Shown piece after piece: positions 6,813 through 16,625 of a DNA stretch of 64,000 bases. The position numbers and the translations under genes are program-made. Each line of letters opens with the position of its first letter. Positions within the stretch are counted from its first letter, which is position 1. This DNA is from Nitrososphaeria archaeon (GTDB lineage Archaea > Thermoproteota > Nitrososphaeria > Nitrososphaerales > JAAOZN01), in NCBI GenBank assembly GCA_029775855.1, contig JARVJZ010000001.1, positions 1 to 64,000 on the forward strand, in the 5' to 3' direction. The notes under the pieces are model-generated. The model was given only the letters and a program-made list of their open reading frames with translations. It was not told the DNA's origin and made no database searches.

Positions 6813-7907
6813 TCAAGACTCTCTCCGCCTTAGTAGTAAAAATAGCAGCATAGGTCCTCCAAGAATCGCTGTCACCGCACCTACCGGTAGCATAATAGGC
6901 GCCATTATTCTTCTAGCTACTATGTCTGCTGCGAGGAGAAGGTTTGCACCGAAGAGCCCAGATGCTGGTATAAGATAGCGTTCATCTCGACCTATCATGA
7001 TGCGACAAATATGTGACGAAAGAAGACCAATAAAACCAATCGCGCCAGTGAAGCTTACAACAGTTGCCGTAGTTAGACAAGCTGTTAATAGCACAATTCG
7101 CCTAACCTTATTAGCTTCCACACCAAGCGCCTTTGCCGCTACGTCACCAATACGCATAACATTCAAGTCCCAAGCTAAACGCATATTGACTAAAAACAAG
7201 AATACAAGTATACCTAAGACATAAGGAATCTGCCACCAATCTGCGCGTGCGAGGTCCCCTACAAGCCAGAAGACGGTCGCTCTTACTGCTTCAGATTCGG
7301 CGAAAAATTGTAGAAGTGTATTAGCTGCGCTGAAGATGTAATTCATCGCAACACCAGTAAGTATAATCGTCTCAGAAGATACCCAAGATTTTTTTGAAAA
7401 TAAAAGTATTACTAAGGCTGGAATGAGAGACAGCACAAAAGCGTTACTAATTATCAGTAATCCACCTTCAATTATTCCGCGACCAAGAATTATTGCGATA
7501 GCAGCCCCAAATCCAGCCGCTGATGAAACACCTAGAGTGTAAGGAGTTGCTAAAGAATTTCGAAGAACTGTTATTACTGTGCTCCCAGAAATCGCTAAAA
7601 CAGCTCCAGATAAAGCTGCCATAACTGTACGTGGCATTCGAAGATATATTACCACCCTTTCTGCGATCTCATTTACTTCGAAGGCTCCTGCACCGAGTTT
7701 ATTGAAGATCACTAAGTAGGCTTCTGTTAAAGAGATTTGAGCTGAACCGAGCGATAATGATAACCCAATCAGAAAGAACAATGATATCGCACAAAAAGCT
7801 AAAAATAGTAATCTTTTAGCAATAAGCCTCTCATATTGACTTCGCTCATAAAATGATACATAGACTCTATTAGATTTGCCCTCGATATCTACGTTTTTTC
7901 CCACCAA
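6813..7907 (-). CDS. FecCD/BtuC-family metal-chelate ABC transporter permease
   Basis: LRMPR, LRNSLATPYTLGVSSAA, GDVAAKALGV, GAIGFIGL, LPVGAVTA. Confidence 0.92.
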   Translation of the reverse strand: MVGKNVDIEGKSNRVYVSFYERSQYERLIAKRLLFLAFCAISLFFLIGLSLSLGSAQISLTEAYLVIFNKLGAGAFEVNEIAERVVIYLRMPRTVMAALSGAVLAISGSTVITVLRNSLATPYTLGVSSAAGFGAAIAIILGRGIIEGGLLIISNAFVLSLIPALVILLFSKKSWVSSETIILTGVAMNYIFSAANTLLQFFAESEAVRATVFWLVGDLARADWWQIPYVLGILVFLFLVNMRLAWDLNVMRIGDVAAKALGVEANKVRRIVLLTACLTTATVVSFTGAIGFIGLLSSHICRIMIGRDERYLIPASGLFGANLLLAADIVARRIMAPIMLPVGAVTAILGGPMLLFLLLRRRES

Positions 7908-8683
7908 ATAGTCGCCACCTTTTTGTTGCGGATATAGTATACACTATCATCTTTTGAATCGACGTGTTGGTTGATGTAGTTCTCTAGTTCCTCTTCTTTA
8001 GATTCTGGGATGTTGTACATATTCATTAACTCAGACCTTAACTCCTCTAAGTTATTGAATCCTTGCTCTACCTTGTAGTTTATGATGCTTATGTTAGCTT
8101 TGATCCCCATCCCATCGAGAAGATTATAGATAATTATGTGGTCACTTAGATTGAAAGGTGCCTTGTTATCAAAGACAATCCTCTGCAGCTCAAAGGGCAT
8201 CCAGCTCTCAGCGGGAACAAACAAGTAAACAAAACTCTTCGCAGCAGCATCCATCTTCAGAAGTGCGTCTCTTATATCAATCATAAGAAGAGAGAGGGAG
8301 GCGATAACTATATCATGCCTATCAATATCAGCTCCTATCTCAACATCCTCCCACCTTTTACATATGAATGAAACATTATCAAGCCCGTGTTTTTTTAAGT
8401 TAACTTTAAGTAATTTAAGCATCTCTTTTGATGGTTCGATTACAGTAACTCGCTCAGCCACTTTAGCTAGGGGTATAGTAAGTCTACCGGTGCCAGAACC
8501 TATCTCAAGCACTTTGCATCCAAAGTCTACATCGATTCTTTCCAGCTGCTTCTTGGTAAGCTCAGATAGTATCTTCCAGTTTCCGTTGTCTCTAGCAGCC
8601 CTACTATCCCAGAAAGATACATCTTTGACTCGATTTAATCCTTGCATATAGCGCTTCCAAGTTTCCGCCCAATCGATATCCAT
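7889..8683 (-). CDS. Class I SAM-dependent methyltransferase embedded in the ABC operon
   Basis: VLEIGSGTG motif I, VIEPSKEML, RWED, HDIVIAS. Confidence 0.88.
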   Translation of the reverse strand: MDIDWAETWKRYMQGLNRVKDVSFWDSRAARDNGNWKILSELTKKQLERIDVDFGCKVLEIGSGTGRLTIPLAKVAERVTVIEPSKEMLKLLKVNLKKHGLDNVSFICKRWEDVEIGADIDRHDIVIASLSLLMIDIRDALLKMDAAAKSFVYLFVPAESWMPFELQRIVFDNKAPFNLSDHIIIYNLLDGMGIKANISIINYKVEQGFNNLEELRSELMNMYNIPESKEEELENYINQHVDSKDDSVYYIRNKKVATIWWEKT

Positions 8684-8736
8684 CTTGTCTCCACTATAAG
8701 TTGATTAGGAGTCTCAAAAACAAGAAAAGAATATGT

Positions 8737-10341
8737 TTAATTTGAAGGTACGCCCACAGCTCTCCCCTCAACATATATTGGTGGGAATAAGAATGTGCCG
8801 TGCTCATCAAGATCATACTTCAACTTCAACCACCTTGATACATACTCTTGATGAACATACTTGGGGTTAAGATCTCCAAATAGAGTAGGATGCAGTATCC
8901 TTGCTAAGTAGACCGCGCCCAGAACGCTACCCATAGCATTATTTCTAAAGTCTCCAGCCATCAAGTATACTTGCTTATTGCTCACTGCTTTGGTTTTTGC
9001 AAGTAGTTCTCTTGATGCAATATCAGACCAAATCTTCTCCAAGTCAGTTTTATCGTCTACATCATAGCCATATGGTGGGCTCTGTGTTGCAGCGCCATAA
9101 GTATACCTTACACAGTGTATAAAGATATATTCTGGATTCTTTTCTAAAACCCATTCTGGGTCTATCGTAGTATAGTAGCTTGTGCTTTGCCAATCAGCAA
9201 GATCCATCGCTATAGGTTTGCCGCCTGCCAGTAGACACATCTGTGAAAGCGGGTCACGAAGGGTATATGTTCGTATAGATTTCTCCTGGGGATTTCTAAA
9301 GTAGCCTACCATACCAGTCATAAGAACTTTTGGCTTCTTATCGTCTGTGAGGCCAGTTGTCCTACTCTTTATCAATTCTATTAAGCTTATTAGCCAATCT
9401 ATGTATGCTTTAGCTTTATCTGGCTCTCCAAGAATATAACCAGCTTTCATAACCCCTTGTATAAAGCGGGACTCCCTTGGGTTAAAGACATCAGGCCAAT
9501 ACAGCCCAAGAAAGATGACCGTAGTATCAGGGAGCTTCGCTTGTTTCTCATCAACATCGGGTGAAAAGCTAAAGATTGCATCGAGTCTTAAGCTTGTGAC
9601 GAGCTCATAGTCTGGTCTAAACATATTTCCAAGGTTCACAACTTTATCCGCGATCTCTTGTAGGTAAAAGTGGCGAAGCTGGTAAGGCGCAAAGTCTACT
9701 GCTATCACCCTATCTATGGCGCCGAGGATACGCACCAGTTCAATATTGCTAAGGTATTCAACACCAAGCCTCTTGATAGGCATCTTAACTTTAAGTGGTT
9801 TTCCGTTTCCATCTAAGATAAATAAGAAGGACGCTTCACCTTTAATGATTGCTTCAACGTGTCGTAGGTCTTGTTCATCTACCTTACCATCCATATTAGC
9901 ATCTGCAAATGTCGTCGATGCTACTTCTCCTTTTAGGATCGACTGGATGTAGTAAAGATCTTTTATATCTATGGCTTCATCTAAATTAGCATTCCCATAG
10001 ATCTCCAAAACAAACCTAGGCTCTTGAGTCGTTTGAACGGTTACAGTTTGAGTTGTGGTTTGTGTTTTGGTTATTGGTTGTGTAATCGTTTGTGTCACTG
10101 CAACTGGACATGTTGTTAATGTGCTGGTCTCTTTAACGGTAGTAGATTCTGTGATAGTTGTAGTGTAGGTTTGTGTAATCGTCTTTGTTTCACTTAACGT
10201 TTTAACAGAATATACTGTTGTTGTGCTTGGTGTTATGTTGGCTACTTGCCAGGAAACCGCCCCAGCGACCAAAGCTAAAATGATTACTACAACAATTAGA
10301 GTGGCTTCAAGTTTTGTGATGGATAAAGTTGCATTTCTCAT
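8737..10341 (-). CDS. Metal-chelate ABC substrate-binding protein (BtuF/FepB-like) with Thr-rich linker and dockerin-like repeat
   Basis: N-terminal TM, Thr-rich linker, paired GNANLD/ADANMDG repeats, then IDPEWVLEKNPEYIF, KAVSNKQVY and YLARILHPTLF. Confidence 0.85.
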   Translation of the reverse strand: MRNATLSITKLEATLIVVVIILALVAGAVSWQVANITPSTTTVYSVKTLSETKTITQTYTTTITESTTVKETSTLTTCPVAVTQTITQPITKTQTTTQTVTVQTTQEPRFVLEIYGNANLDEAIDIKDLYYIQSILKGEVASTTFADANMDGKVDEQDLRHVEAIIKGEASFLFILDGNGKPLKVKMPIKRLGVEYLSNIELVRILGAIDRVIAVDFAPYQLRHFYLQEIADKVVNLGNMFRPDYELVTSLRLDAIFSFSPDVDEKQAKLPDTTVIFLGLYWPDVFNPRESRFIQGVMKAGYILGEPDKAKAYIDWLISLIELIKSRTTGLTDDKKPKVLMTGMVGYFRNPQEKSIRTYTLRDPLSQMCLLAGGKPIAMDLADWQSTSYYTTIDPEWVLEKNPEYIFIHCVRYTYGAATQSPPYGYDVDDKTDLEKIWSDIASRELLAKTKAVSNKQVYLMAGDFRNNAMGSVLGAVYLARILHPTLFGDLNPKYVHQEYVSRWLKLKYDLDEHGTFLFPPIYVEGRAVGVPSN

Positions 10342-10354
10342 TACATCTTCCTCC

Positions 10355-10384
10355 AGTATTAACTTTTTATCTATTCGTAATACT
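10355..10384. promoter_or_regulatory. NikR-like operator in the divergent promoter of the ABC system
   Basis: Perfect inverted repeat AGTATTA-N16-TAATACT, with the same spacing as the E. coli NikR site GTATGA-N16-TCATAC. Confidence 0.6.
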
Positions 10385-10410
10385 TATATCGAATCCGTTA
10401 TTTAACTATT

Positions 10411-11244
10411 GTGGTGTGTGCTGGTTTGCAGCTAATCGTAGATGGATTAAGATTCAGCTATCAGAGCTCAGAGGTTCTTAAAGGCGTCTCTTTCGAATTA
10501 AACGACCATGAAATCTTAGGAGTGATAGGCCCTAATGGTTCTGGGAAGACTACTCTTCTTAAGTGCATAAATATGGTGCTGAAACCTAAGCAAGGGCTGG
10601 TTCTTTTCGATGGAAATGATGTAAAGAGGATGGAAAGGCTGGATGTGGCTAAGATTTTTGGTTATGTGCCGCAGAATGCACAATTAACTTTTGATACCCC
10701 AACTGTCTTTGAATGTGTACTTATGGGTCGCAGACCATATGTTTCTTGGAGATGCAGCCCAGAGGATTTTGAAAAGACTTGGTCAGCCTTGGCAGCCCTT
10801 GGTATAGAGCGCTTTGCTATGCGCAGACTTAGTGAGTTGAGTAGTGGTGAACAGCAGAAGGTGCTTATTGCAAGGGCTTTGGCCCAAGAAGCGAAGGTGC
10901 TCCTGCTTGATGAACCAACTAGTAACCTTGACATTAAGCATCAGCTTGAGGTGATGAATATTATGAAGGATTTGGTGATCTTTAAAGGGCTTTCAGCCAT
11001 CGTAGCGATTCATGATCTTAACCTTGCTTCGATATATTGTGATAAGCTTCTTTTGCTAAGAGAAGGTGAAGTTGTTGCTGTTGGTAAACCGAAGGATGTA
11101 CTAACCGTGGAGAGGATTAAAGATGTTTATGGTGTTGATGTTGACATAGAAATCAAGGATGATAGAGTATGTATTACTGTGCTACCAAATAGTTTGAATT
11201 GTTCACCATCGAACCTAATATCCGTAAATAGAAAAAAGGCATAA
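10411..11244 (+). CDS. Metal-chelate ABC transporter ATP-binding protein (FepC/BtuD-like)
   Basis: GPNGSGKT, LSSGEQQ, LLLDEPTSNLD, HDLNLA. Confidence 0.93.
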   Translation: MVCAGLQLIVDGLRFSYQSSEVLKGVSFELNDHEILGVIGPNGSGKTTLLKCINMVLKPKQGLVLFDGNDVKRMERLDVAKIFGYVPQNAQLTFDTPTVFECVLMGRRPYVSWRCSPEDFEKTWSALAALGIERFAMRRLSELSSGEQQKVLIARALAQEAKVLLLDEPTSNLDIKHQLEVMNIMKDLVIFKGLSAIVAIHDLNLASIYCDKLLLLREGEVVAVGKPKDVLTVERIKDVYGVDVDIEIKDDRVCITVLPNSLNCSPSNLISVNRKKA

Positions 11245-11298: not shown

Positions 11299-11377
11299 GG
11301 GCCCGTGGCCTAGCATGGATCAAGGCGTCGGCCTTCGGAGCCGAAGAACAGGGGTTCAAATCCCCTCGGGCCCGCCA
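11299..11377 (+). tRNA. tRNA-Arg(UCG), intronless, CCA encoded
   Basis: Acceptor stem GGGCCCG/CGGGCCC; anticodon arm TCGGC-CT-TCG-GA-GCCGA; T arm AGGGG-TTCAAAT-CCCCT; ends GCCA. Confidence 0.95.
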
Positions 11378-11495: not shown

Positions 11496-11511
11496 ACATA
11501 TTTAAGTATGT
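11496..11511 (+). promoter_or_regulatory. TATA box inside a short inverted repeat, promoter of the thioredoxin-MtrA-like operon
   Basis: ACATA-TTTAAG-TATGT about 30 bp upstream of ATG 11535, preceded by an A-rich BRE-like GAAAGAA. Confidence 0.4.
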
Positions 11512-11534
11512 GAATCTGTTATAAGGATAGGGAT

Positions 11535-11801
11535 ATGGAAACCAAGGTTTTGGGTGTGGTGAAGGTTCTTGGGACGGGATGCCCGCGCTGCCAAGAAACA
11601 AAGAGGCTTGTGATAAACGCTCTAGCAGAGCTTCAGCTTGCCGCGGATGTGCAAGAAGTTAAAGATCCTCGAGAGATTGCGAAGCACGGGGTGATGTTCA
11701 CTCCAGCCATCATCATAAATAATCAGCTTGTCTCTCAAGGTAGAGTGCCAACGTATGATGAAGTGAAGAAGTGGTTTGCTGAAAGAGCATCTAAAACATA
11801 G
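11535..11801 (+). CDS. Small thioredoxin-family redox-active disulfide protein (MTH895-like, typical of ars operons)
   Basis: KVLGTGCPRC, GVMFTPAIIIN, GRVP. Confidence 0.9.
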   Translation: METKVLGVVKVLGTGCPRCQETKRLVINALAELQLAADVQEVKDPREIAKHGVMFTPAIIINNQLVSQGRVPTYDEVKKWFAERASKT

Positions 11802-11817
11802 CCCCACCGTGATTTAG

Positions 11818-12540
11818 ATGAGTAAAATAGATTACGCTAAGATGCAGAGTGAACTCACGAAAATCCTTAACCTAAAGTTTCCTCCAGTGGCTGTAGCGTT
11901 AATCAGAAAGGAGGGTGACATTCCTAAAGATGTAGCTGAGCTCGATAAGCCGATGTTCTACTGTGGTATGATAAAGTATGCGATGCTCGGAAACACATTC
12001 TATGCTAAGGAGAACAAGCATAGCTGTAGGCGAGGAGCAGCGGCGCTTGGGATGATCGAAATACCAGAAGATGAAAGGACTGGAGAGTTCTATCTAAACA
12101 AGGAATCATGCAGCTCCCTAAGAGCAGCTGTAAGGTTCGTGTTGGAGTCGCCAAGCCTTGAGCCTAGAAGCGTCTATGCAACACTGCTTTCACCTTTGGA
12201 GAAGACTCCCGTTGACCCTGACGTGGTAATTATGGAGATGATTCCGAGGAGAGCTTTCGAAGTCATGCACGCATCCATATTCGACATAGGTGGTAAAGTA
12301 GAAAGCTGGATGTCCGCTCCAAGACAGCTCTGCGGAGCATCCACAGTCAGACCCTATTTGGGGAAGTTGAACATAACCTTCGCCTGCGAGTTTGCAAGAA
12401 TGGCTGCGAAAGCCTTTGGTGCTAAATATATGGACGAAGGGGTTATCCTAGGAATTCCTGGAGAGCTGCTTCAGACGGTTGTAGAGAATCTTGGCAGAAT
12501 TGGGTATGTGAGGAAACGACTCGGGACAATTACGGTCTAA
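11818..12540 (+). CDS. DUF169 family protein
   Basis: L.L..PPVAV, FYCGMI, SCRRGAAALG, SPLEKTPVDPDVV, QLCG, FACEFAR, GIP. Confidence 0.85.
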   Translation: MSKIDYAKMQSELTKILNLKFPPVAVALIRKEGDIPKDVAELDKPMFYCGMIKYAMLGNTFYAKENKHSCRRGAAALGMIEIPEDERTGEFYLNKESCSSLRAAVRFVLESPSLEPRSVYATLLSPLEKTPVDPDVVIMEMIPRRAFEVMHASIFDIGGKVESWMSAPRQLCGASTVRPYLGKLNITFACEFARMAAKAFGAKYMDEGVILGIPGELLQTVVENLGRIGYVRKRLGTITV

Positions 12541-13599
12541 GTGGCGGATATGCGTCTAAGAATAGGTGCTTTGGAAGGCTGGCATCTAATCCGCACAAGC
12601 ATACTGCTTGCATTCATAATCTCAGTTATCGTTGGTTTAATCTACTCTAGAGTTATGGCTTATTCGCTCGCACCAACCCTAAGCGTGGCAGACCTTCACG
12701 GGCTTCCAATATGGCAGATCCCAATAGCCTACCTTATAGACTACTTCAGCCACGGCTGGCTCTGTCTACTCTTCGCCTTCATAGCCGCTGGTTTAATCTA
12801 CGAGCTTATACCCAAGCATCTAATCACAACATATATGAGGAGCGGCAGAGCAGCAGGGTACCTTCTAGCTCTTGTTGCAGCACCCTTCTTAACAGTCTGT
12901 TCATGCACCATGGTTCCTCTTTTCGCAGGAGTACTCTATAGCGGCGCTGGTATAGGGCCAGCAATCACCTTCCTCTTGATGGCGCCCTCAGCTAACATAC
13001 TTGCCATACTTGTCACAGGGGATCTACTATATTGGGAGCTGGCTTGGGTGCGTATAGTGGTATCGGTTATTGTCGCGCTTTCGGCGGGTATTGTAGTCTC
13101 TAAAACACCTTGGGGTAAGCTGGTGGAGAAGGAGTGTCACAACACTGCGCAAACCGCCGTTGTAGTAAGCGGTTTAGAGCAGCCTCTAGACGAAAAGCTC
13201 TGGGCTGCTTTAAAGTTCGGGGGGTATCTAGCTAAGCAGATCCTACCATACTTCATCATCGGGTTAATCGCTGTAAGCTATGTTGAAGCATACCTCCCCA
13301 GTGATATAGTAGGAAGCTACTTAACCGGAATAGGTGGTATATTAATAGCATCAGTCCTTGGGGGTCCACTTTACACACCTACTCTCGTGGAGATCGTTGT
13401 AGGTAAGGGTCTATGGAGCTTAGGTATGTCAAAAGGCGCTTTGCTAGCTTGGCTCATGGGTCAACCCTATGATATCGCAAACGCATTAGCCGTATCTAAA
13501 ATAGCGAAGTGGAAGGTGGTGTTAACATATATGGTGATAGCGTGGTTTGGAAGCGTAGTATTTGGTCTGCTGTATGGAGTGTTAAGCGGAAGCCTCTAG
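12541..13599 (+). CDS. ArsP/DUF318-family permease
   Basis: PFLTVCSCTMVP, GPAITFLLMAP, GGPLY; two-repeat multi-TM topology. Confidence 0.85.
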   Translation: MADMRLRIGALEGWHLIRTSILLAFIISVIVGLIYSRVMAYSLAPTLSVADLHGLPIWQIPIAYLIDYFSHGWLCLLFAFIAAGLIYELIPKHLITTYMRSGRAAGYLLALVAAPFLTVCSCTMVPLFAGVLYSGAGIGPAITFLLMAPSANILAILVTGDLLYWELAWVRIVVSVIVALSAGIVVSKTPWGKLVEKECHNTAQTAVVVSGLEQPLDEKLWAALKFGGYLAKQILPYFIIGLIAVSYVEAYLPSDIVGSYLTGIGGILIASVLGGPLYTPTLVEIVVGKGLWSLGMSKGALLAWLMGQPYDIANALAVSKIAKWKVVLTYMVIAWFGSVVFGLLYGVLSGSL

Positions 13600-13608
13600 G
13601 TTACCTCT

Positions 13609-14370
13609 ATGTCTGGAAAGAAGATTCTTAAAGTGCCACCGCCGCCTGAATACCCACCTGAAGAAGGCAGCTACTTAAGGGGAAACGACTTTTCTCCAGC
13701 AGCAGTCTGCGTGCTACTACACACCTTCTATGACAAGATACCTGACTGGATGCAGGCTTTAGTTAAAGTAGGTGTTGAAAACGGTGCAGCATTATCCGGA
13801 TACCTTCAGACTGAAAACATTGGAGTTGAAAAGATAATCTGCAATATCGTAGCGAATCCAAACATACGCTACTTAATAGTGTGTGGTGTCGAATCAATGG
13901 GTCACCAACCAGGTCAAACCCTACAAGCCCTCGTGGATAACGGTGTTGACGATAAGCGTAGGATAATAGGGGCTAAAGCACCCACACCATACCTCTACAA
14001 CATACCCCTAGAGGCTATTGAACGCTTCAGGAAGCAGATAACCCTAGTAAATCTAGCCTTACTCGAAGACGTCACATTAGCGAGAAAACCAGAGGTAATA
14101 AAAGAGGCTATTAGATGCTGCTATCAAGAAGAACCAACAAACTTCATGCAATGGACCTTGTATGATCCAGGGGCATATCCGGCTGAGCCTATGTGTTTTA
14201 AGATCACTTGGCGCATCGAAAGACCTTGGGCGGTCTTTTCAGAGAAGGAGGAGGAAGTATTAAAGAAGACTGTCGAAGCGGCGAAGAAAGAAAGCGAAAA
14301 AGAGAGACGCCGAAAAGAAGCTGAAGAACTGCTAGAACTGCTTGGCGTTAGGAGAAACGGAAAGGGTTAG
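13609..14370 (+). CDS. mtrA: Soluble MtrA-like corrinoid protein (tetrahydromethanopterin S-methyltransferase subunit A homolog)
   Basis: YPPEEGSY..GN..SPAAVC, TENIGVEKIICNIVANPNIRYLIVCG.E..GH..GQ (cobamide His), RRIIGA...P.L.N, IERFRKQ, DPGAY. The C-terminus is charged, with no TM anchor. Confidence 0.88.
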   Translation: MSGKKILKVPPPPEYPPEEGSYLRGNDFSPAAVCVLLHTFYDKIPDWMQALVKVGVENGAALSGYLQTENIGVEKIICNIVANPNIRYLIVCGVESMGHQPGQTLQALVDNGVDDKRRIIGAKAPTPYLYNIPLEAIERFRKQITLVNLALLEDVTLARKPEVIKEAIRCCYQEEPTNFMQWTLYDPGAYPAEPMCFKITWRIERPWAVFSEKEEEVLKKTVEAAKKESEKERRRKEAEELLELLGVRRNGKG

Positions 14371-14696: not shown

Positions 14697-15227
14697 GTGA
14701 GGTTAGGTTTGGAGCCTCTAATCCACTTTGTTATACCTTTTGTTGCTTTGATGCTAGTTGGTGTTAAGTTTAAGAACGCTCTGCTGCTATCACTATTTGC
14801 ATTAGCACCAGATTTAGATGCCTTATTTCTTATACATAGATCCTTCACACACTCAATACCATTTCTTCTCTTAGCAGCAGCACCTTTACTGTTCATAATC
14901 TACAGGCTTAACGCGAAGCTTCTAAGGTATGGGTTTATCGCGCTGCTATCTATGTTGTCTCATGTAGTGTTAGATCTTCCGGCAGGCTATACGCCTATTC
15001 TTTGGCCTCTCTACAACTACTCGATTTGGTTTCAAGGTGATTTATTTGCGCATATTGGAAGTGCACCTACTTTATCGTTAAATCTACACATATTAACTGA
15101 GCCTATAACCTTTAGGTATCTGGGAAGCCTTGATGCACCACTTTTCACAGGCAGCGGTTTAATACTCGCACTTACTATTCTCACACCCTTCTTTGTTAAA
15201 ATAATTGTCCAAAGTTTTCGCTCCTAG
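14697..15227 (+). CDS. Membrane-bound metal-dependent hydrolase (YdjM-like)
   Basis: H, APDLD, HRSFTHS and SHVVLD motifs. Confidence 0.82.
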   Translation: MRLGLEPLIHFVIPFVALMLVGVKFKNALLLSLFALAPDLDALFLIHRSFTHSIPFLLLAAAPLLFIIYRLNAKLLRYGFIALLSMLSHVVLDLPAGYTPILWPLYNYSIWFQGDLFAHIGSAPTLSLNLHILTEPITFRYLGSLDAPLFTGSGLILALTILTPFFVKIIVQSFRS

Positions 15228-15256
15228 CATTGGCGTATATTTGCTGTTAGTAAGAT

Positions 15257-15751
15257 TTAGAGATGCTTAGCTTTAGGATATCTGCTGTATAGGTAGAGTT
15301 GGTGGTTCCCCATGCTCAGCCAGCCTAAGTCTTCTGTCTTCTCTTCTTTAAAGAAGGTAAATAATCCTTGCTTTCCAAGCTCCTTGATGAGCCACTCTAC
15401 ATCTGTGTGGTAGTAGACAGGGTAGAGGAGGGCTTGGTGTGTAGTCGGATACTTGACTATAACTACAAAGACTGCAAGATTCTTGTGAAGTCCAAACTCT
15501 ATGCTTAATGTGCCTCTTAAATCTCTTCTAAGGATCTTTGAAAGCTCTTTTGCTTTATCCTCAGATATTGTTAGAGAGAAACCTAGGCGACCCAGCTTCT
15601 TTGTAAGTGAAACATCTTTTGGGTATATTGCTAGAACATTGTATCCTTCTTTCTTTAACTCATCTTTAATAGCATCCATGTCGCTTTGGAGTTGTAGCTT
15701 TATCTCGTTAAGCATCTTAGATACTTCGCTATCTTTTGACTTTGCTTCCAT
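15257..15751 (-). CDS. Hypothetical protein
   Basis: 164-aa ORF with ATG start and normal composition; no recognised motif. Confidence 0.6.
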   Translation of the reverse strand: MEAKSKDSEVSKMLNEIKLQLQSDMDAIKDELKKEGYNVLAIYPKDVSLTKKLGRLGFSLTISEDKAKELSKILRRDLRGTLSIEFGLHKNLAVFVVIVKYPTTHQALLYPVYYHTDVEWLIKELGKQGLFTFFKEEKTEDLGWLSMGNHQLYLYSRYPKAKHL

Positions 15752-15794
15752 GTCATCACATTTAAAACGGCTGCATATAAGTTGTTTGTATCAT

Positions 15795-16625
15795 CTACTC
15801 TTTATATCTGTGTAGTAGGCGTGTGCCTCTCGTTGTGAAGCCTATGCTGAAGTAGTAGCCAGCAACGATCTCCTTCGGCTGAAGAGCACTTAACTCCTCG
15901 ATGTCAGAATCGTAGAATTGAAGCGTAGCATCTCCAGCCCATACCTTTCCAACTTTCACACTACCTTTCTGTGTTTGCAGCTGCACTAACTCGTGCACAG
16001 TAGTTCCTTTATTCTCCACATCTATATTTGGGAAGTGTCTTGTGTGTATTAGGTCTAATGGTTTGGGCAGCTCTTCTGGGGTTGCTTCTCTCTTTATTGT
16101 TAGTGTAGCGTATGCCAACCTTTCACCGTGTGCTTCACATATAGCAGCAAGCCTGCTTCCTACGCCAAAGCTATTCACGGTTGGTAGAAGTCCATATAGA
16201 TTGGATTTACAGCCTATGAGGTGTATTCTGCCTATCTTCTTTGGGAAACCCATGAACCATCCTCTGAGCATCGTAAAGTCGTTATCGACCCAGGCGTAGA
16301 CGCATCTCTGTGCATCAACACCCCTATACCTACAATATACACCTACCAGAAGTTCCTTATATTGAGCCCTCTCAGGGTTAATGTAAAGCATATCTTCACC
16401 ACCATCCCAAATAGAAAGCCAGTCTCCGAACCAAGCGTAGCATAAAGCCGGATCTGAGTAAGGCTCTAAGGGCTCAGGCAACAAACTTCTCACGGCATCT
16501 TCATCAGCCCTAAATATTATGCTCAATAGATCTACGGCGTAGTGCCAAGGCGGAGCACCCATAAGAGAAGCCTTCCCCTCAGGTGAGAGAGGCAAGCAGA
16601 AACCTTTCAAACTATGCTTGCTCAT
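15795..16625 (-). CDS. Acetoacetate decarboxylase-like family protein
   Basis: G.ASL...PPWHY, LLPEPLEP, QYKE, WVDND...RGWFMGFPKK (Schiff-base Lys). Confidence 0.85.
   Translation of the reverse strand: MSKHSLKGFCLPLSPEGKASLMGAPPWHYAVDLLSIIFRADEDAVRSLLPEPLEPYSDPALCYAWFGDWLSIWDGGEDMLYINPERAQYKELLVGVYCRYRGVDAQRCVYAWVDNDFTMLRGWFMGFPKKIGRIHLIGCKSNLYGLLPTVNSFGVGSRLAAICEAHGERLAYATLTIKREATPEELPKPLDLIHTRHFPNIDVENKGTTVHELVQLQTQKGSVKVGKVWAGDATLQFYDSDIEELSALQPKEIVAGYYFSIGFTTRGTRLLHRYKE

Follow-up and report, generated by a model that had tools for sequence, protein, structure and literature searches.

Anchorless MtrA-like proteins as candidate cobamide components of arsenic-resistance operons in anaerobic archaea and bacteria

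A cluster of four genes was analyzed in a stretch of 64,000 nucleotides (nt) of DNA from a Nitrososphaeria archaeon (GenBank assembly GCA_029775855.1, contig JARVJZ010000001.1, positions 1 to 64,000; hereafter, the window). On the forward strand, it encodes an ArsE/MTH895-type thioredoxin-like protein (trx, 11535-11801, 88 amino acids (aa)), a DUF169 protein (11818-12540, 240 aa), an ArsP-family (PF03773) permease (arsP, 12541-13599, 352 aa) and a putative cobamide protein of the NF002126 clade (13609-14370, 253 aa), which resembles the methanogen corrinoid protein MtrA in its predicted fold and lacks a membrane anchor. The findings point to an undescribed cobamide component of ars operons and to a B12-dependent step of arsenic detoxification. 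It is likely that the MtrA-like protein is an ArsR-regulated, arsenic-related cobamide protein. The best explanation as a whole, an ArsR-controlled ars operon with a corrinoid methyl carrier acting on arsenic, is given a probability of about 45%, and methyl exchange with arsenic is proposed tentatively, by analogy with known MtrA, as the chemistry of the MtrA-like protein. A preceding sequence-only reading had described the genes as a tightly packed, co-oriented cluster behind a TATA box set within an inverted repeat; open reading frame (ORF) calls confirmed gaps of 16, 0 and 9 nt, and the CPRC, CSC and GH..GQ motifs named for the thioredoxin, the permease and the MtrA-like protein were all located.

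The only Pfam family found in the MtrA-like protein was PF04208 (139.8 bits, cut-off 25). Among NCBIfam models, the protein exceeded the cut-off of NF002126 (PRK00964.1-4; 186.4 bits, cut-off 161) and remained under that of the mtrA equivalog TIGR01111 (140.2 bits, cut-off 249.15), and neither a class I methyltransferase domain nor a match to NF008823 (ArsM) was detected in it with Pfam and NCBIfam. A sequence search matched it to the solved MtrA structure PDB 5LAA (1.9e-37). Its AlphaFold (AF2) model, with a predicted local distance difference test (pLDDT) value of 82.9, matched the same structure with an E-value of 7.7e-18, TMt of 0.90, root mean square deviation of 2.8 Å and 40% identity. 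As judged from this model, the protein shares the Rossmann-like MtrA fold. Residue H99, within GH..GQ, aligned with His84 of the solved MtrA and was kept in 80/80 sequences, and E69 aligned with Glu54 and was invariant in 13/13 alignment rows. In MtrA, His84 is the cobalt ligand and Glu54 its hydrogen-bond partner (Wagner et al. 2016, PMC4915002). By these residues, the MtrA-like protein would be expected to be loaded with cobamide.

The replacement of the membrane anchor by a charged C-terminus, proposed previously, was borne out: the 19-residue hydropathy maximum in the last 60 residues was only -0.07, with no transmembrane segment, versus maxima of 2.2-2.7 at residues 221-227 in four canonical MtrAs. 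Proteins of the clade also carry their own signatures, namely, YPPEEGxYxRGND at the N-terminus, CYQExP, and TWxxxxPW followed by a charged helix at the C-terminus. The only universally conserved Cys is C171, which is present in canonical MtrA as well.

The MtrA phylogeny that had been suggested as a check covered 80 sequences related to the window protein; the reference sequences, drawn from five genomes, were four canonical MtrAs plus three soluble paralogues of methanogens. The 80 relatives formed their own clade apart from canonical MtrA, with an SH-aLRT (approximate likelihood ratio test of the Shimodaira-Hasegawa type) value of 99. The window protein resembles methanogen MtrA and its cytoplasmic paralogues (5LAA, 5L8X; PMC4915002) in its predicted fold and in the His84 and Glu54 equivalents, and it is soluble as the paralogues are. 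Unlike canonical MtrA, it lies in a separate clade and under the TIGR01111 cut-off, has its own N- and C-terminal motifs and no anchor, is not accompanied by MtrB-H partners at the window's locus, and has relatives that are also found in bacteria and inside ars clusters.

The genome from which the window was taken comprises 1.51 Mb in 6 contigs and is 98.4% complete. The whole genome contained 1 match to PF04208, and profiles of MtrH (PF02007), MtrE (PF04206) and McrA (PF02249) gave 0 matches each. Consequently, the observation that no other mtr or mcr genes accompany the operon holds for this nearly complete genome as well as for the window, and no Mtr system was found there into which the protein could fit. 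This lack of MtrH, MtrE and McrA shows that the protein does not serve as a subunit of Mtr. CdhD and CdhE, the Wood-Ljungdahl corrinoid protein, are encoded in the genome, which indicates that the organism uses cobamide; two further proteins with B12-binding domains are also encoded.

The NF002126 clade is widespread in anaerobic archaea and bacteria. Relatives were detected in 3330/4005 candidate clusters at E <= 1e-10, with source names that included Bathyarchaeia, Nitrososphaerota, Hydrothermarchaeota and Methanofastidiosa MtrA; after clustering at 50%, 799 representatives matched at E <= 0.001 and 45 at E <= 1e-30. When contigs from a collection with one genome per species were searched, 357/373 pattern matches encoded an MtrA-like relative. 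The archaeal hosts of the best 80 of these 357 were Bathyarchaeia, metagenome-assembled genomes (MAGs) labelled Nitrososphaeria, Brockarchaeota, Hadarchaeota, Thorarchaeota, anaerobic methanotrophic archaea (ANME) and methanogens, and the bacterial hosts were Thermodesulfobacteriota, Aerophobetes, Acidobacteriota, Chloroflexota, Actinomycetota, Armatimonadota, Planctomycetota, Spirochaetota and others. In the window's own GTDB class, 0/200 other sampled genomes matched at 1e-40. Therefore, the gene is accessory in that class, in keeping with the position of the operon next to a tRNA gene and with its modestly raised guanine-plus-cytosine (GC) content.

The neighborhoods of the MtrA-like genes were compared by means of naive ORF calls. 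All ORFs within 5 kb of the gene were clustered by BLASTP, and each cluster was named after the Pfam or NCBIfam match of one representative. The best 80 of 357 genome-collection loci and the best 80 of 542 metagenome contigs, many of them only 1-4 kb long, were covered, and the latter were scored with hidden Markov models built from the genome-locus clusters. A gene for ACR3, ArsP, ArsM or an ArsC-like protein within 5 kb was counted as a core ars marker. Such a marker was found at 74/160 loci of the two collections, mostly co-oriented with the MtrA-like gene, and the linkage noticed in the window is thus conserved elsewhere (35/80 and 39/80 loci). In the genome collection, the core marker lay within 1 kb in 29 loci, and any marker was present in 44. 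The neighbors there were ArsR/HTH_5 (27), Trx_3 (23), ArsP (23), ACR3 (21), DsbD-like proteins (9), DGC (8), ArsM (7), LMWPc (ArsC-like, 6) and DUF169 (5). On the metagenome contigs, of which 43 had any marker, they were ACR3 (23), ArsR (19), ArsP (17), Trx_3 (16), ArsC (16), DGC (12), DsbD (6), DUF169 (5) and ArsM (3). Hence, of the partners whose co-occurrence had been proposed, Trx_3, arsR and ArsP recurred often and DUF169 was present at few loci. Under our assumption of two ACR3 copies per 2 Mb and a span of 11 kb, the binomial tail for ACR3 in 21/80 loci is 4e-23.

Several gene orders recurred. In the closest relatives (L107-L109, 85-87% identity), the co-oriented order was trx-DUF169-arsP-mtrA-acr3, and in four further loci (L003-L005, L009), it was trx-DUF169-arsP-mtrA-arsR; the position 3' of the MtrA-like gene is therefore taken by arsR or acr3 in close relatives, unlike in the window. 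The co-oriented order arsR-acr3-mtrA was found in Bathyarchaeia, arsR-arsP-trx-mtrA-dsbD(-dsbD)-acr3 in Aerophobetes and a Clostridia-labelled MAG (L041, L060, L065), and arsM-acr3-arsC-mtrA in Acidobacteriota (L047, L080). In the tree, ars contexts occurred on deep branches of the clade in both domains. The family assignments exceeded the model cut-offs for ACR3 (TIGR00832; cluster representative 466.8 bits and the genome's own copy 430.6 bits, cut-off 282.8) and for ArsM (NF008823; 374.2 and 289.9 bits, respectively, cut-off 263), whereas the DsbD-like representative was weakly ArsG-like (48.5 bits, under the cut-off of 200 bits). The arsenic link of the MtrA-like clade is thus well supported. 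Since ACR3, ArsM and ArsC are the linked genes, the target is narrowed to arsenic or antimony. In this respect, the earlier proposal that the MtrA fold was recruited to handle metalloids stands for As and Sb, for which the linkage and a common operator speak, and no evidence was obtained for its other candidates Hg, Se and Te.

The common operator is a 16-nt palindrome, ACATATTTAAGTATGT (11496-11511), which consists of the arms ACATA and TATGT around a TATA-like TTTAAG and has its center 31 nt 5' of the trx ATG. Its 5-nt arms are too short to stand out alone, and it was not listed in a repeat search at seed 6, which also revealed no convincing mobile-element repeat in the promoter. The inverted repeat around the TATA box is not attributed to chance because it recurs at other ars promoters. 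Two exact copies of the 12-mer ACATATTTAAGT are present in the genome, 5' of the trx operon and 5' of acr3 (C1:82139-82154), and the 16-mer with <=2 mismatches was also found 5' of the genome's arsR (C4:203720-203735). A degenerate pattern with <=1 mismatch had 4 sites in 1.5 Mb, versus 0-3 (mean, 1.3) in 12 first-order Markov genomes. Three of these 4 sites lay in promoters, namely, those of acr3, arsR and the trx operon, 19-42 nt 5' of the start codons, and the fourth was inside a glycosyltransferase gene. The copy before acr3 (C1:82139-82181 region) overlaps the first in-frame ATG of that ORF; the true acr3 start is probably the Met that follows 10 codons later, in which case the motif would lie 27-42 nt upstream of it, similar to the arrangement at the other two promoters. 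In relatives, a perfect palindrome, ACATATTTAAATATGT, was located 19 nt 5' of arsR in L003, L004, L005 and L009, and variants were located before trx (L005, L006), acr3 (L010) and arsR (L015, L031). Upstream of the genome's arsM and of its ArsC-like gene (2248-2646), no copy was detected.

No arsR gene adjoins the operon in the window, and the ars genes of the genome are scattered: ACR3 is encoded at C1:82151-83248, ArsM at C3:114038-114793 and ArsR at C4:203330-203701. The genome's ArsR is 54-55% identical to the ArsRs encoded 3' of the MtrA-like gene in L003-L005 and L009. The latter carry CVC, and the printed part of the genome's ArsR ends with MCV at the matching place. Since the operator is common to the window operon, acr3 and arsR, the operon is placed in the ArsR regulon. 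The palindrome would then be an ArsR operator that overlaps the TATA box, and a putative archaeal operator of this kind is thereby defined.

The proteins encoded beside the MtrA-like protein were also studied. The thioredoxin matched PF13192 (Thioredoxin_3, 85.8 bits, above its cut-off), TIGR00412 (MTH895/ArsE-like, 87.2 bits, cut-off 62) and PDB 1ILO (1.1e-8); it contains CPRC, and CxxC was kept in 14/15 members of its cluster. The permease belongs to PF03773 (ArsP_1, 157.8 bits, cut-off 32.3) and fell under the NCBIfam cut-offs of the SO_0444 and SaoE equivalogs. Its CxC pair (C120 and C122, in TVCSC) was kept in 22/23 ArsP-like neighbors; a Cys pair is required in characterized ArsP.

The DUF169 protein matched PF02596 (146.5 bits, cut-off 27), and in 26 sequences, C70, C172 and C190 were invariant and C49 was at least 90% conserved. 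Its model had a pLDDT of 93.8 and gave 0 Foldseek matches in the PDB at E <= 0.001; phmmer also gave 0 matches in the PDB at E <= 1. In a wide VIA-align comparison, the best Z was 4.5, with thiolase/ketosynthase-like and PheRS-B-like rows tied, and no fold can be read from this result. The ESM Atlas offered GGGtGRT as a look-alike (0.91, 174 features in common), to be taken as no more than a lead. No paper on the function of DUF169 was found in the literature search. Another lead is a drawing of a DUF169 gene beside genes for an HgcA-like protein, a UbiE-like methyltransferase and MerR in Nitrospina (bioRxiv 10.1101/648329). In a 724-nt contig from an RNA library of a related strain (X15, approximately 96% alike, window 11803-12574), the 770 nt of DUF169 are skipped, and 47 other letters lie between the end of trx and arsP; it represents a natural operon variant that lacks DUF169. 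Because this contig skips the gene and DUF169 was found at only 5/80 and 5/80 loci, DUF169 is considered optional. Therefore, the suggestion that it serves as a reductant or reactivation partner was not upheld: it is not part of the core (10/160 loci), and a relative does without it. The predicted complex of the MtrA-like and DUF169 proteins (score 0.00, mark 0.32) counts neither way.

Taken together with known MtrA chemistry, a mechanism can be proposed. The four genes would form an arsenic-resistance operon repressed by a CVC-type ArsR at the palindrome overlapping the TATA box. The MtrA-like protein would act as a soluble corrinoid methyl carrier according to CH3-Co(III) + As(III) <-> Co(I) + CH3-As(V), by the same nucleophile chemistry as in MtrA with coenzyme M, whose thiolate attacks methyl-Co(III). 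In the forward direction, As(III) would take the methyl group, and in the reverse direction, Co(I) would take it from a pentavalent methylarsenical. The ArsE-type thioredoxin may reduce thiols or handle arsenicals, the ArsP permease may export the trivalent organoarsenical, and ACR3, encoded directly 3' in close relatives and elsewhere in the window's genome under the same operator, may export As(III). ArsP has been described as a methylarsenite exporter (10.64898/2026.08.27.747368). Adjacency to ArsP suits methylation, and adjacency to ACR3 suits demethylation. Arsenite is methylated non-enzymatically by methylcobalamin, methylcobalamin-dependent formation of arsine occurs in methanogen extracts, and McBride and Wolfe reportedly observed, in 1971, methylcobalamin-dependent arsenic methylation in such extracts.

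Several observations weigh against this explanation. The operon has no gene for a methyl-loading enzyme, and MtrH is missing from the genome. An ArsM that exceeds the NCBIfam cut-off is already encoded there, so the organism's route cannot be called independent of ArsM, as had been suggested. An evident thiol cluster for binding As(III) is lacking in the MtrA-like protein itself; since no such cluster is specific to the clade, any arsenic would arrive bound to a partner or a small thiol. The putative binding of ArsR to the palindrome is deduced from position and recurrence only. The loci examined were the most similar ones and not a random sample, the metagenome contigs may overlap with MAG contigs, and for the ArsC-like cluster, the identification goes no further than Pfam LMWPc. 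No ars marker was found at 36/80 genome loci and 37/80 metagenome loci, many of them on short contigs, and a 25-row subclade, mostly of Thermodesulfobacteriota, accounted for 22 of the 36 marker-free genome loci. Finally, at two Hydrothermarchaeota-type loci, L024 (6840-8378) and L028, the MtrA-like protein bears a GYF_2 domain at its C-terminus, and its gene is arranged head-to-head with one for a DUF6513-Pterin_bind-DUF4346 protein, which suits ordinary one-carbon (C1) metabolism. These two proteins may form a methyl-pterin:corrinoid methyltransferase pair, and the pterin-binding neighbor implies that some members of the clade may be methylated from methyl-pterin.

Fusions in the clade bear on the redox state of the corrinoid. 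An N-terminal 2x[4Fe-4S] ferredoxin domain was found in L031, L063 and L074 (3/8 long forms scanned), and other cluster representatives (P0125, P0127, P0128) had a Cys-rich C-terminal extension of approximately 190 residues or a TusA-like N-terminus. Such Fe-S and Cys-rich fusions fit a predicted redox-activated corrinoid, with a built-in source of low-potential electrons as needed by both methyl-carrying and reductive corrinoid enzymes. It could be supposed that the MtrA-like protein is a corrinoid-dependent reductase or redox module and not a methyl carrier. Co(I)/Co(II) fed by Fe-S centers or ferredoxin would then reduce either a disulfide or a pentavalent or oxidized arsenical (As(V), pentavalent methylarsenic, thio- or aromatic arsenicals), and the protein would work within a thiol-redox module like that of ArsE/ArsG. 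The ferredoxin fusions and the Cys-rich C-terminal fusions would agree with this, as would the thiol-redox neighbors (Trx_3 23/80, DsbD-like 9/80, DGC 8/80), the weak likeness of the DsbD-like representative to ArsG and the listing of ArsE and ArsF as conferring organoarsenical resistance (PMC9144182). The Fe-S fusions do not discriminate between the two, because methyl-carrying corrinoids need Fe-S reactivation too. Methyl carriage is the sole chemistry known for the MtrA fold (PMC4915002), and many of these clusters already have a reductase that is ArsC-like (6/80 and 16/80). A reductase is thus considered improbable.

A comparably small probability is assigned to protection or buffering of cobamide under arsenic stress, in which an arsenic-induced B12-binding protein would sequester, chaperone or replace cobamide for the Wood-Ljungdahl corrinoid enzymes and would not act on arsenic itself. 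The hosts are anaerobic, the genome has CdhD and CdhE, and the cofactor-supply gene folE confers resistance within an ars operon (PMC9144182). The MtrA-like gene has no fixed neighbor, the upstream gene varying among ArsP, Trx, ACR3, ArsC, ArsM, DGC and DUF169, and a BtuFCD-like importer is encoded just upstream of the operon in the window. However, adjacency to the importer is not conserved (homologues of the ABC ATPase at 5/80 foreign loci), the tight and often overlapping placement between arsP/trx and acr3/dsbD suggests a step in arsenical handling, and the Fe-S fusions favor catalysis.

It is still less probable that the protein is an ordinary C1 methyl carrier, a remnant of the MtrAH type feeding the Wood-Ljungdahl pathway, with ars neighbors that are incidental or were co-transferred in an island. 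This is the hypothetical role given in the literature to MtrA and MtrAH of non-methanogens (PMC9635834, PMC9723677, PMC11291895), and it is favored by the pterin-binding neighbor in L024 and L028, by the 22 of 25 rows without markers in the Thermodesulfobacteriota subclade and by the Wood-Ljungdahl corrinoid protein of the genome. Nevertheless, MtrH is absent from the genome, ars linkage extends to 74/160 loci in many phyla, the operator is common to acr3 and arsR, the clade is distinct from canonical MtrA, and the 0/200 matches in the class fit an accessory trait better than core metabolism. That the system acts not on arsenic but on a different element with thiophilic character (Sb, Hg, Se, Te, Cu or Zn) is equally doubtful: ArsR/SmtB regulators and PF03773 permeases are not specific for arsenic, the permease's nearest NCBIfam equivalogs, a Cu/Zn efflux transporter and SaoE, were both below cut-off, and a drawing of a Nitrospina locus places DUF169 next to MerR and a gene for an HgcA-like protein (bioRxiv 10.1101/648329), but the linked ACR3 and ArsM pass arsenic-named equivalog or subfamily cut-offs and the relatives' ArsRs carry CVC, with only Sb(III), which shares ACR3 and ArsR, not separable from As(III) by the present data.

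The proposed arsenic-acting methyl carrier was compared with known systems. In HgcAB, which methylates Hg, a corrinoid protein is paired with a 2[4Fe-4S] ferredoxin; the pair has an ArsR-like regulator and, in some genomes, ars genes nearby (10.1101/2022.10.17.512643). The MtrA-like proteins share with it a predicted corrinoid, a ferredoxin (fused in some members), putative ArsR control, ars neighborhoods and anaerobic hosts. They differ in that HgcA is CFeSP-like and has a transmembrane domain (Gionfriddo et al., bioRxiv 10.1101/2022.10.17.512643), whereas the MtrA-like protein is non-homologous (PF04208 alone), has no transmembrane segment and showed no link to Hg. The same source describes an arsenic-induced arsR5-arsP-arsE(PF13192)-DGC operon in Pseudodesulfovibrio mercurii ND132, and ArsEFG is an organoarsenical module (PMC9144182). 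At many loci, the MtrA-like gene has the same ArsR, ArsP, Trx_3 and DGC families around it, so that its thioredoxin, ArsP, DGC and DsbD-like neighbors have counterparts in modules linked earlier to organoarsenical resistance; unlike these loci, the modules as described in the relevant parts of these two sources name no corrinoid protein and no DUF169. ArsM and ArsI take similar places by arsP or acr3 in ars operons and catalyze the kind of step, methylation or demethylation, that is proposed here; the MtrA-like protein is not homologous to them and would use cobamide instead of SAM (S-adenosylmethionine) and need no O2.

With respect to the literature, Wagner et al. (PMC4915002) noted that bacteria and non-methanogenic archaea also have MtrA homologues, most of which retain the His, with no function given in the part of the article concerned. 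Two-subunit methyltransferases of the MtrAH type in non-methanogens have been regarded as remnants with an unclear role (Adam et al. 2022, PMC9635834; for Asgard archaea, PMC9723677 and PMC11291895); these are likewise MtrA homologues outside methanogenesis, unlike the window protein in that its genome has no MtrH. In a study of paddy soil, the mechanism of anaerobic demethylation was called unresolved, ArsI being dependent on O2 and corrinoid methyltransferases being suspected (10.64898/2026.08.27.747368). The string "mtr" occurs 0 times in the latter text, and "arsen" occurs 0 times in that of Adam et al. (PMC9635834). No paper linking MtrA-like proteins to ars genes was found in the literature within reach, which left out subscription journals and supplements. 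The idea that the route is undescribed therefore holds so far, the nearest precedent being ArsR control of the non-homologous HgcAB.

Anaerobic methylation and, above all, demethylation of arsenic control its speciation in paddy soils, sediments and hot springs, and a cobamide protein embedded in ars operons and widespread in anaerobes is a concrete, clonable candidate for such a step. That these proteins constitute a new enzyme system for the methyl chemistry of arsenic under anaerobic conditions is a realistic prospect. That the NF002126 proteins are, specifically, the missing O2-independent, cobamide-dependent arsenic demethylase or methylase, controlled by ArsR and reactivated by ferredoxin, is rather unlikely at this stage. 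If the proposed function is correct, the MtrA homologues of bacteria and non-methanogenic archaea would have a role. Genome surveys currently take them for C1 enzymes or leftovers of methanogenesis, and metabolic reconstructions in which they are scored as Mtr would then have to be corrected. Such a function would also be a second, convergent recruitment of a corrinoid protein to metal(loid) alkyl chemistry beside HgcAB, and a gene would be available for the methylcobalamin-dependent arsenic methylation reportedly seen in methanogen extracts. The putative placement in the ArsR regulon would itself connect corrinoid proteins with ArsR regulons a second time, independently of HgcAB.

Some loci had additional features. 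Genes for GcvH-like lipoyl carriers (PF01597) were located near the MtrA-like gene in L016, L018, L032 and L071, three of them Bathyarchaeia-labelled and L071 Deltaproteobacteria-labelled, and L016 and L032 also carry ars-type neighbors. Dithiol lipoyl arms are classic targets of As(III), and the GcvH-like proteins may be arsenic decoys or carriers. A radical SAM/SPASM protein of approximately 495 aa was encoded near the MtrA-like gene in L013, L031 and L053; in L013 and L031, its gene adjoins that of a small ArsD-like/Trx_3-like protein with a GCCGPG motif. An ANME-1-type genome holds two MtrA-like paralogues (L093:1135-2004, the same as the second copy in L076). One of these, of 290 aa, follows arsR-arsP, and its C-terminal extension of approximately 90 residues is winged-helix-like and matches nothing in Pfam. 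Three representatives of another branch of the MtrA superfamily (P0150, P0152, P0154) were fused to a thymidylate-synthase-like domain (PF00303, 28-66 bits).

In the window, the operon begins 119 nt past a tRNA-Arg(TCG) gene (11299-11377, forward strand, ARAGORN), which forms its left border, and has a GC content of 0.45-0.49, modestly above the 0.37-0.44 of its flanks. No direct repeat of the tRNA end bounding the operon in the manner of an attachment site was found. The BtuFCD-like importer just upstream (6813-11244), which could supply cobamide, comprises a FecCD gene (6813-7907, reverse strand), a gene for a Peripla_BP_2 protein whose N-terminal part is Thr-rich and dockerin-like (8737-10341, reverse strand) and an ABC ATPase gene (10411-11244, forward strand). 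A link to cobalamin uptake through this adjacency was rejected because of its lack of conservation. A SAM methyltransferase is encoded among these genes (7889-8683, reverse strand); its best NCBIfam match was the corrinoid protein-associated methyltransferase CpaM (43 bits, cut-off 180 bits). The genes 3' of the operon (14697-16625), for a YdjM-like membrane protein (forward strand), DUF7529 (reverse strand) and an acetoacetate decarboxylase-family protein (reverse strand), seem unrelated. Near the start of contig C1, a gene for a PstS-like phosphate-binding protein (1006-2217) is followed by the LMWPc arsenate-reductase-like gene (2248-2646; 104.9 bits, below the cut-off of 157.6 bits).

Two RNA libraries that belong to a single sediment study yielded contigs, 95-99% alike, which span the trx/DUF169 and DUF169/arsP junctions and parts of arsP, and none of these contigs covers the MtrA-like gene. 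Since such contigs cannot show a transcript and the libraries may contain DNA, nothing is concluded from them on the expression of any gene. All runs holding at least 0.2 of the window's sampled words (9/9) were labelled as hot-springs metagenomes.

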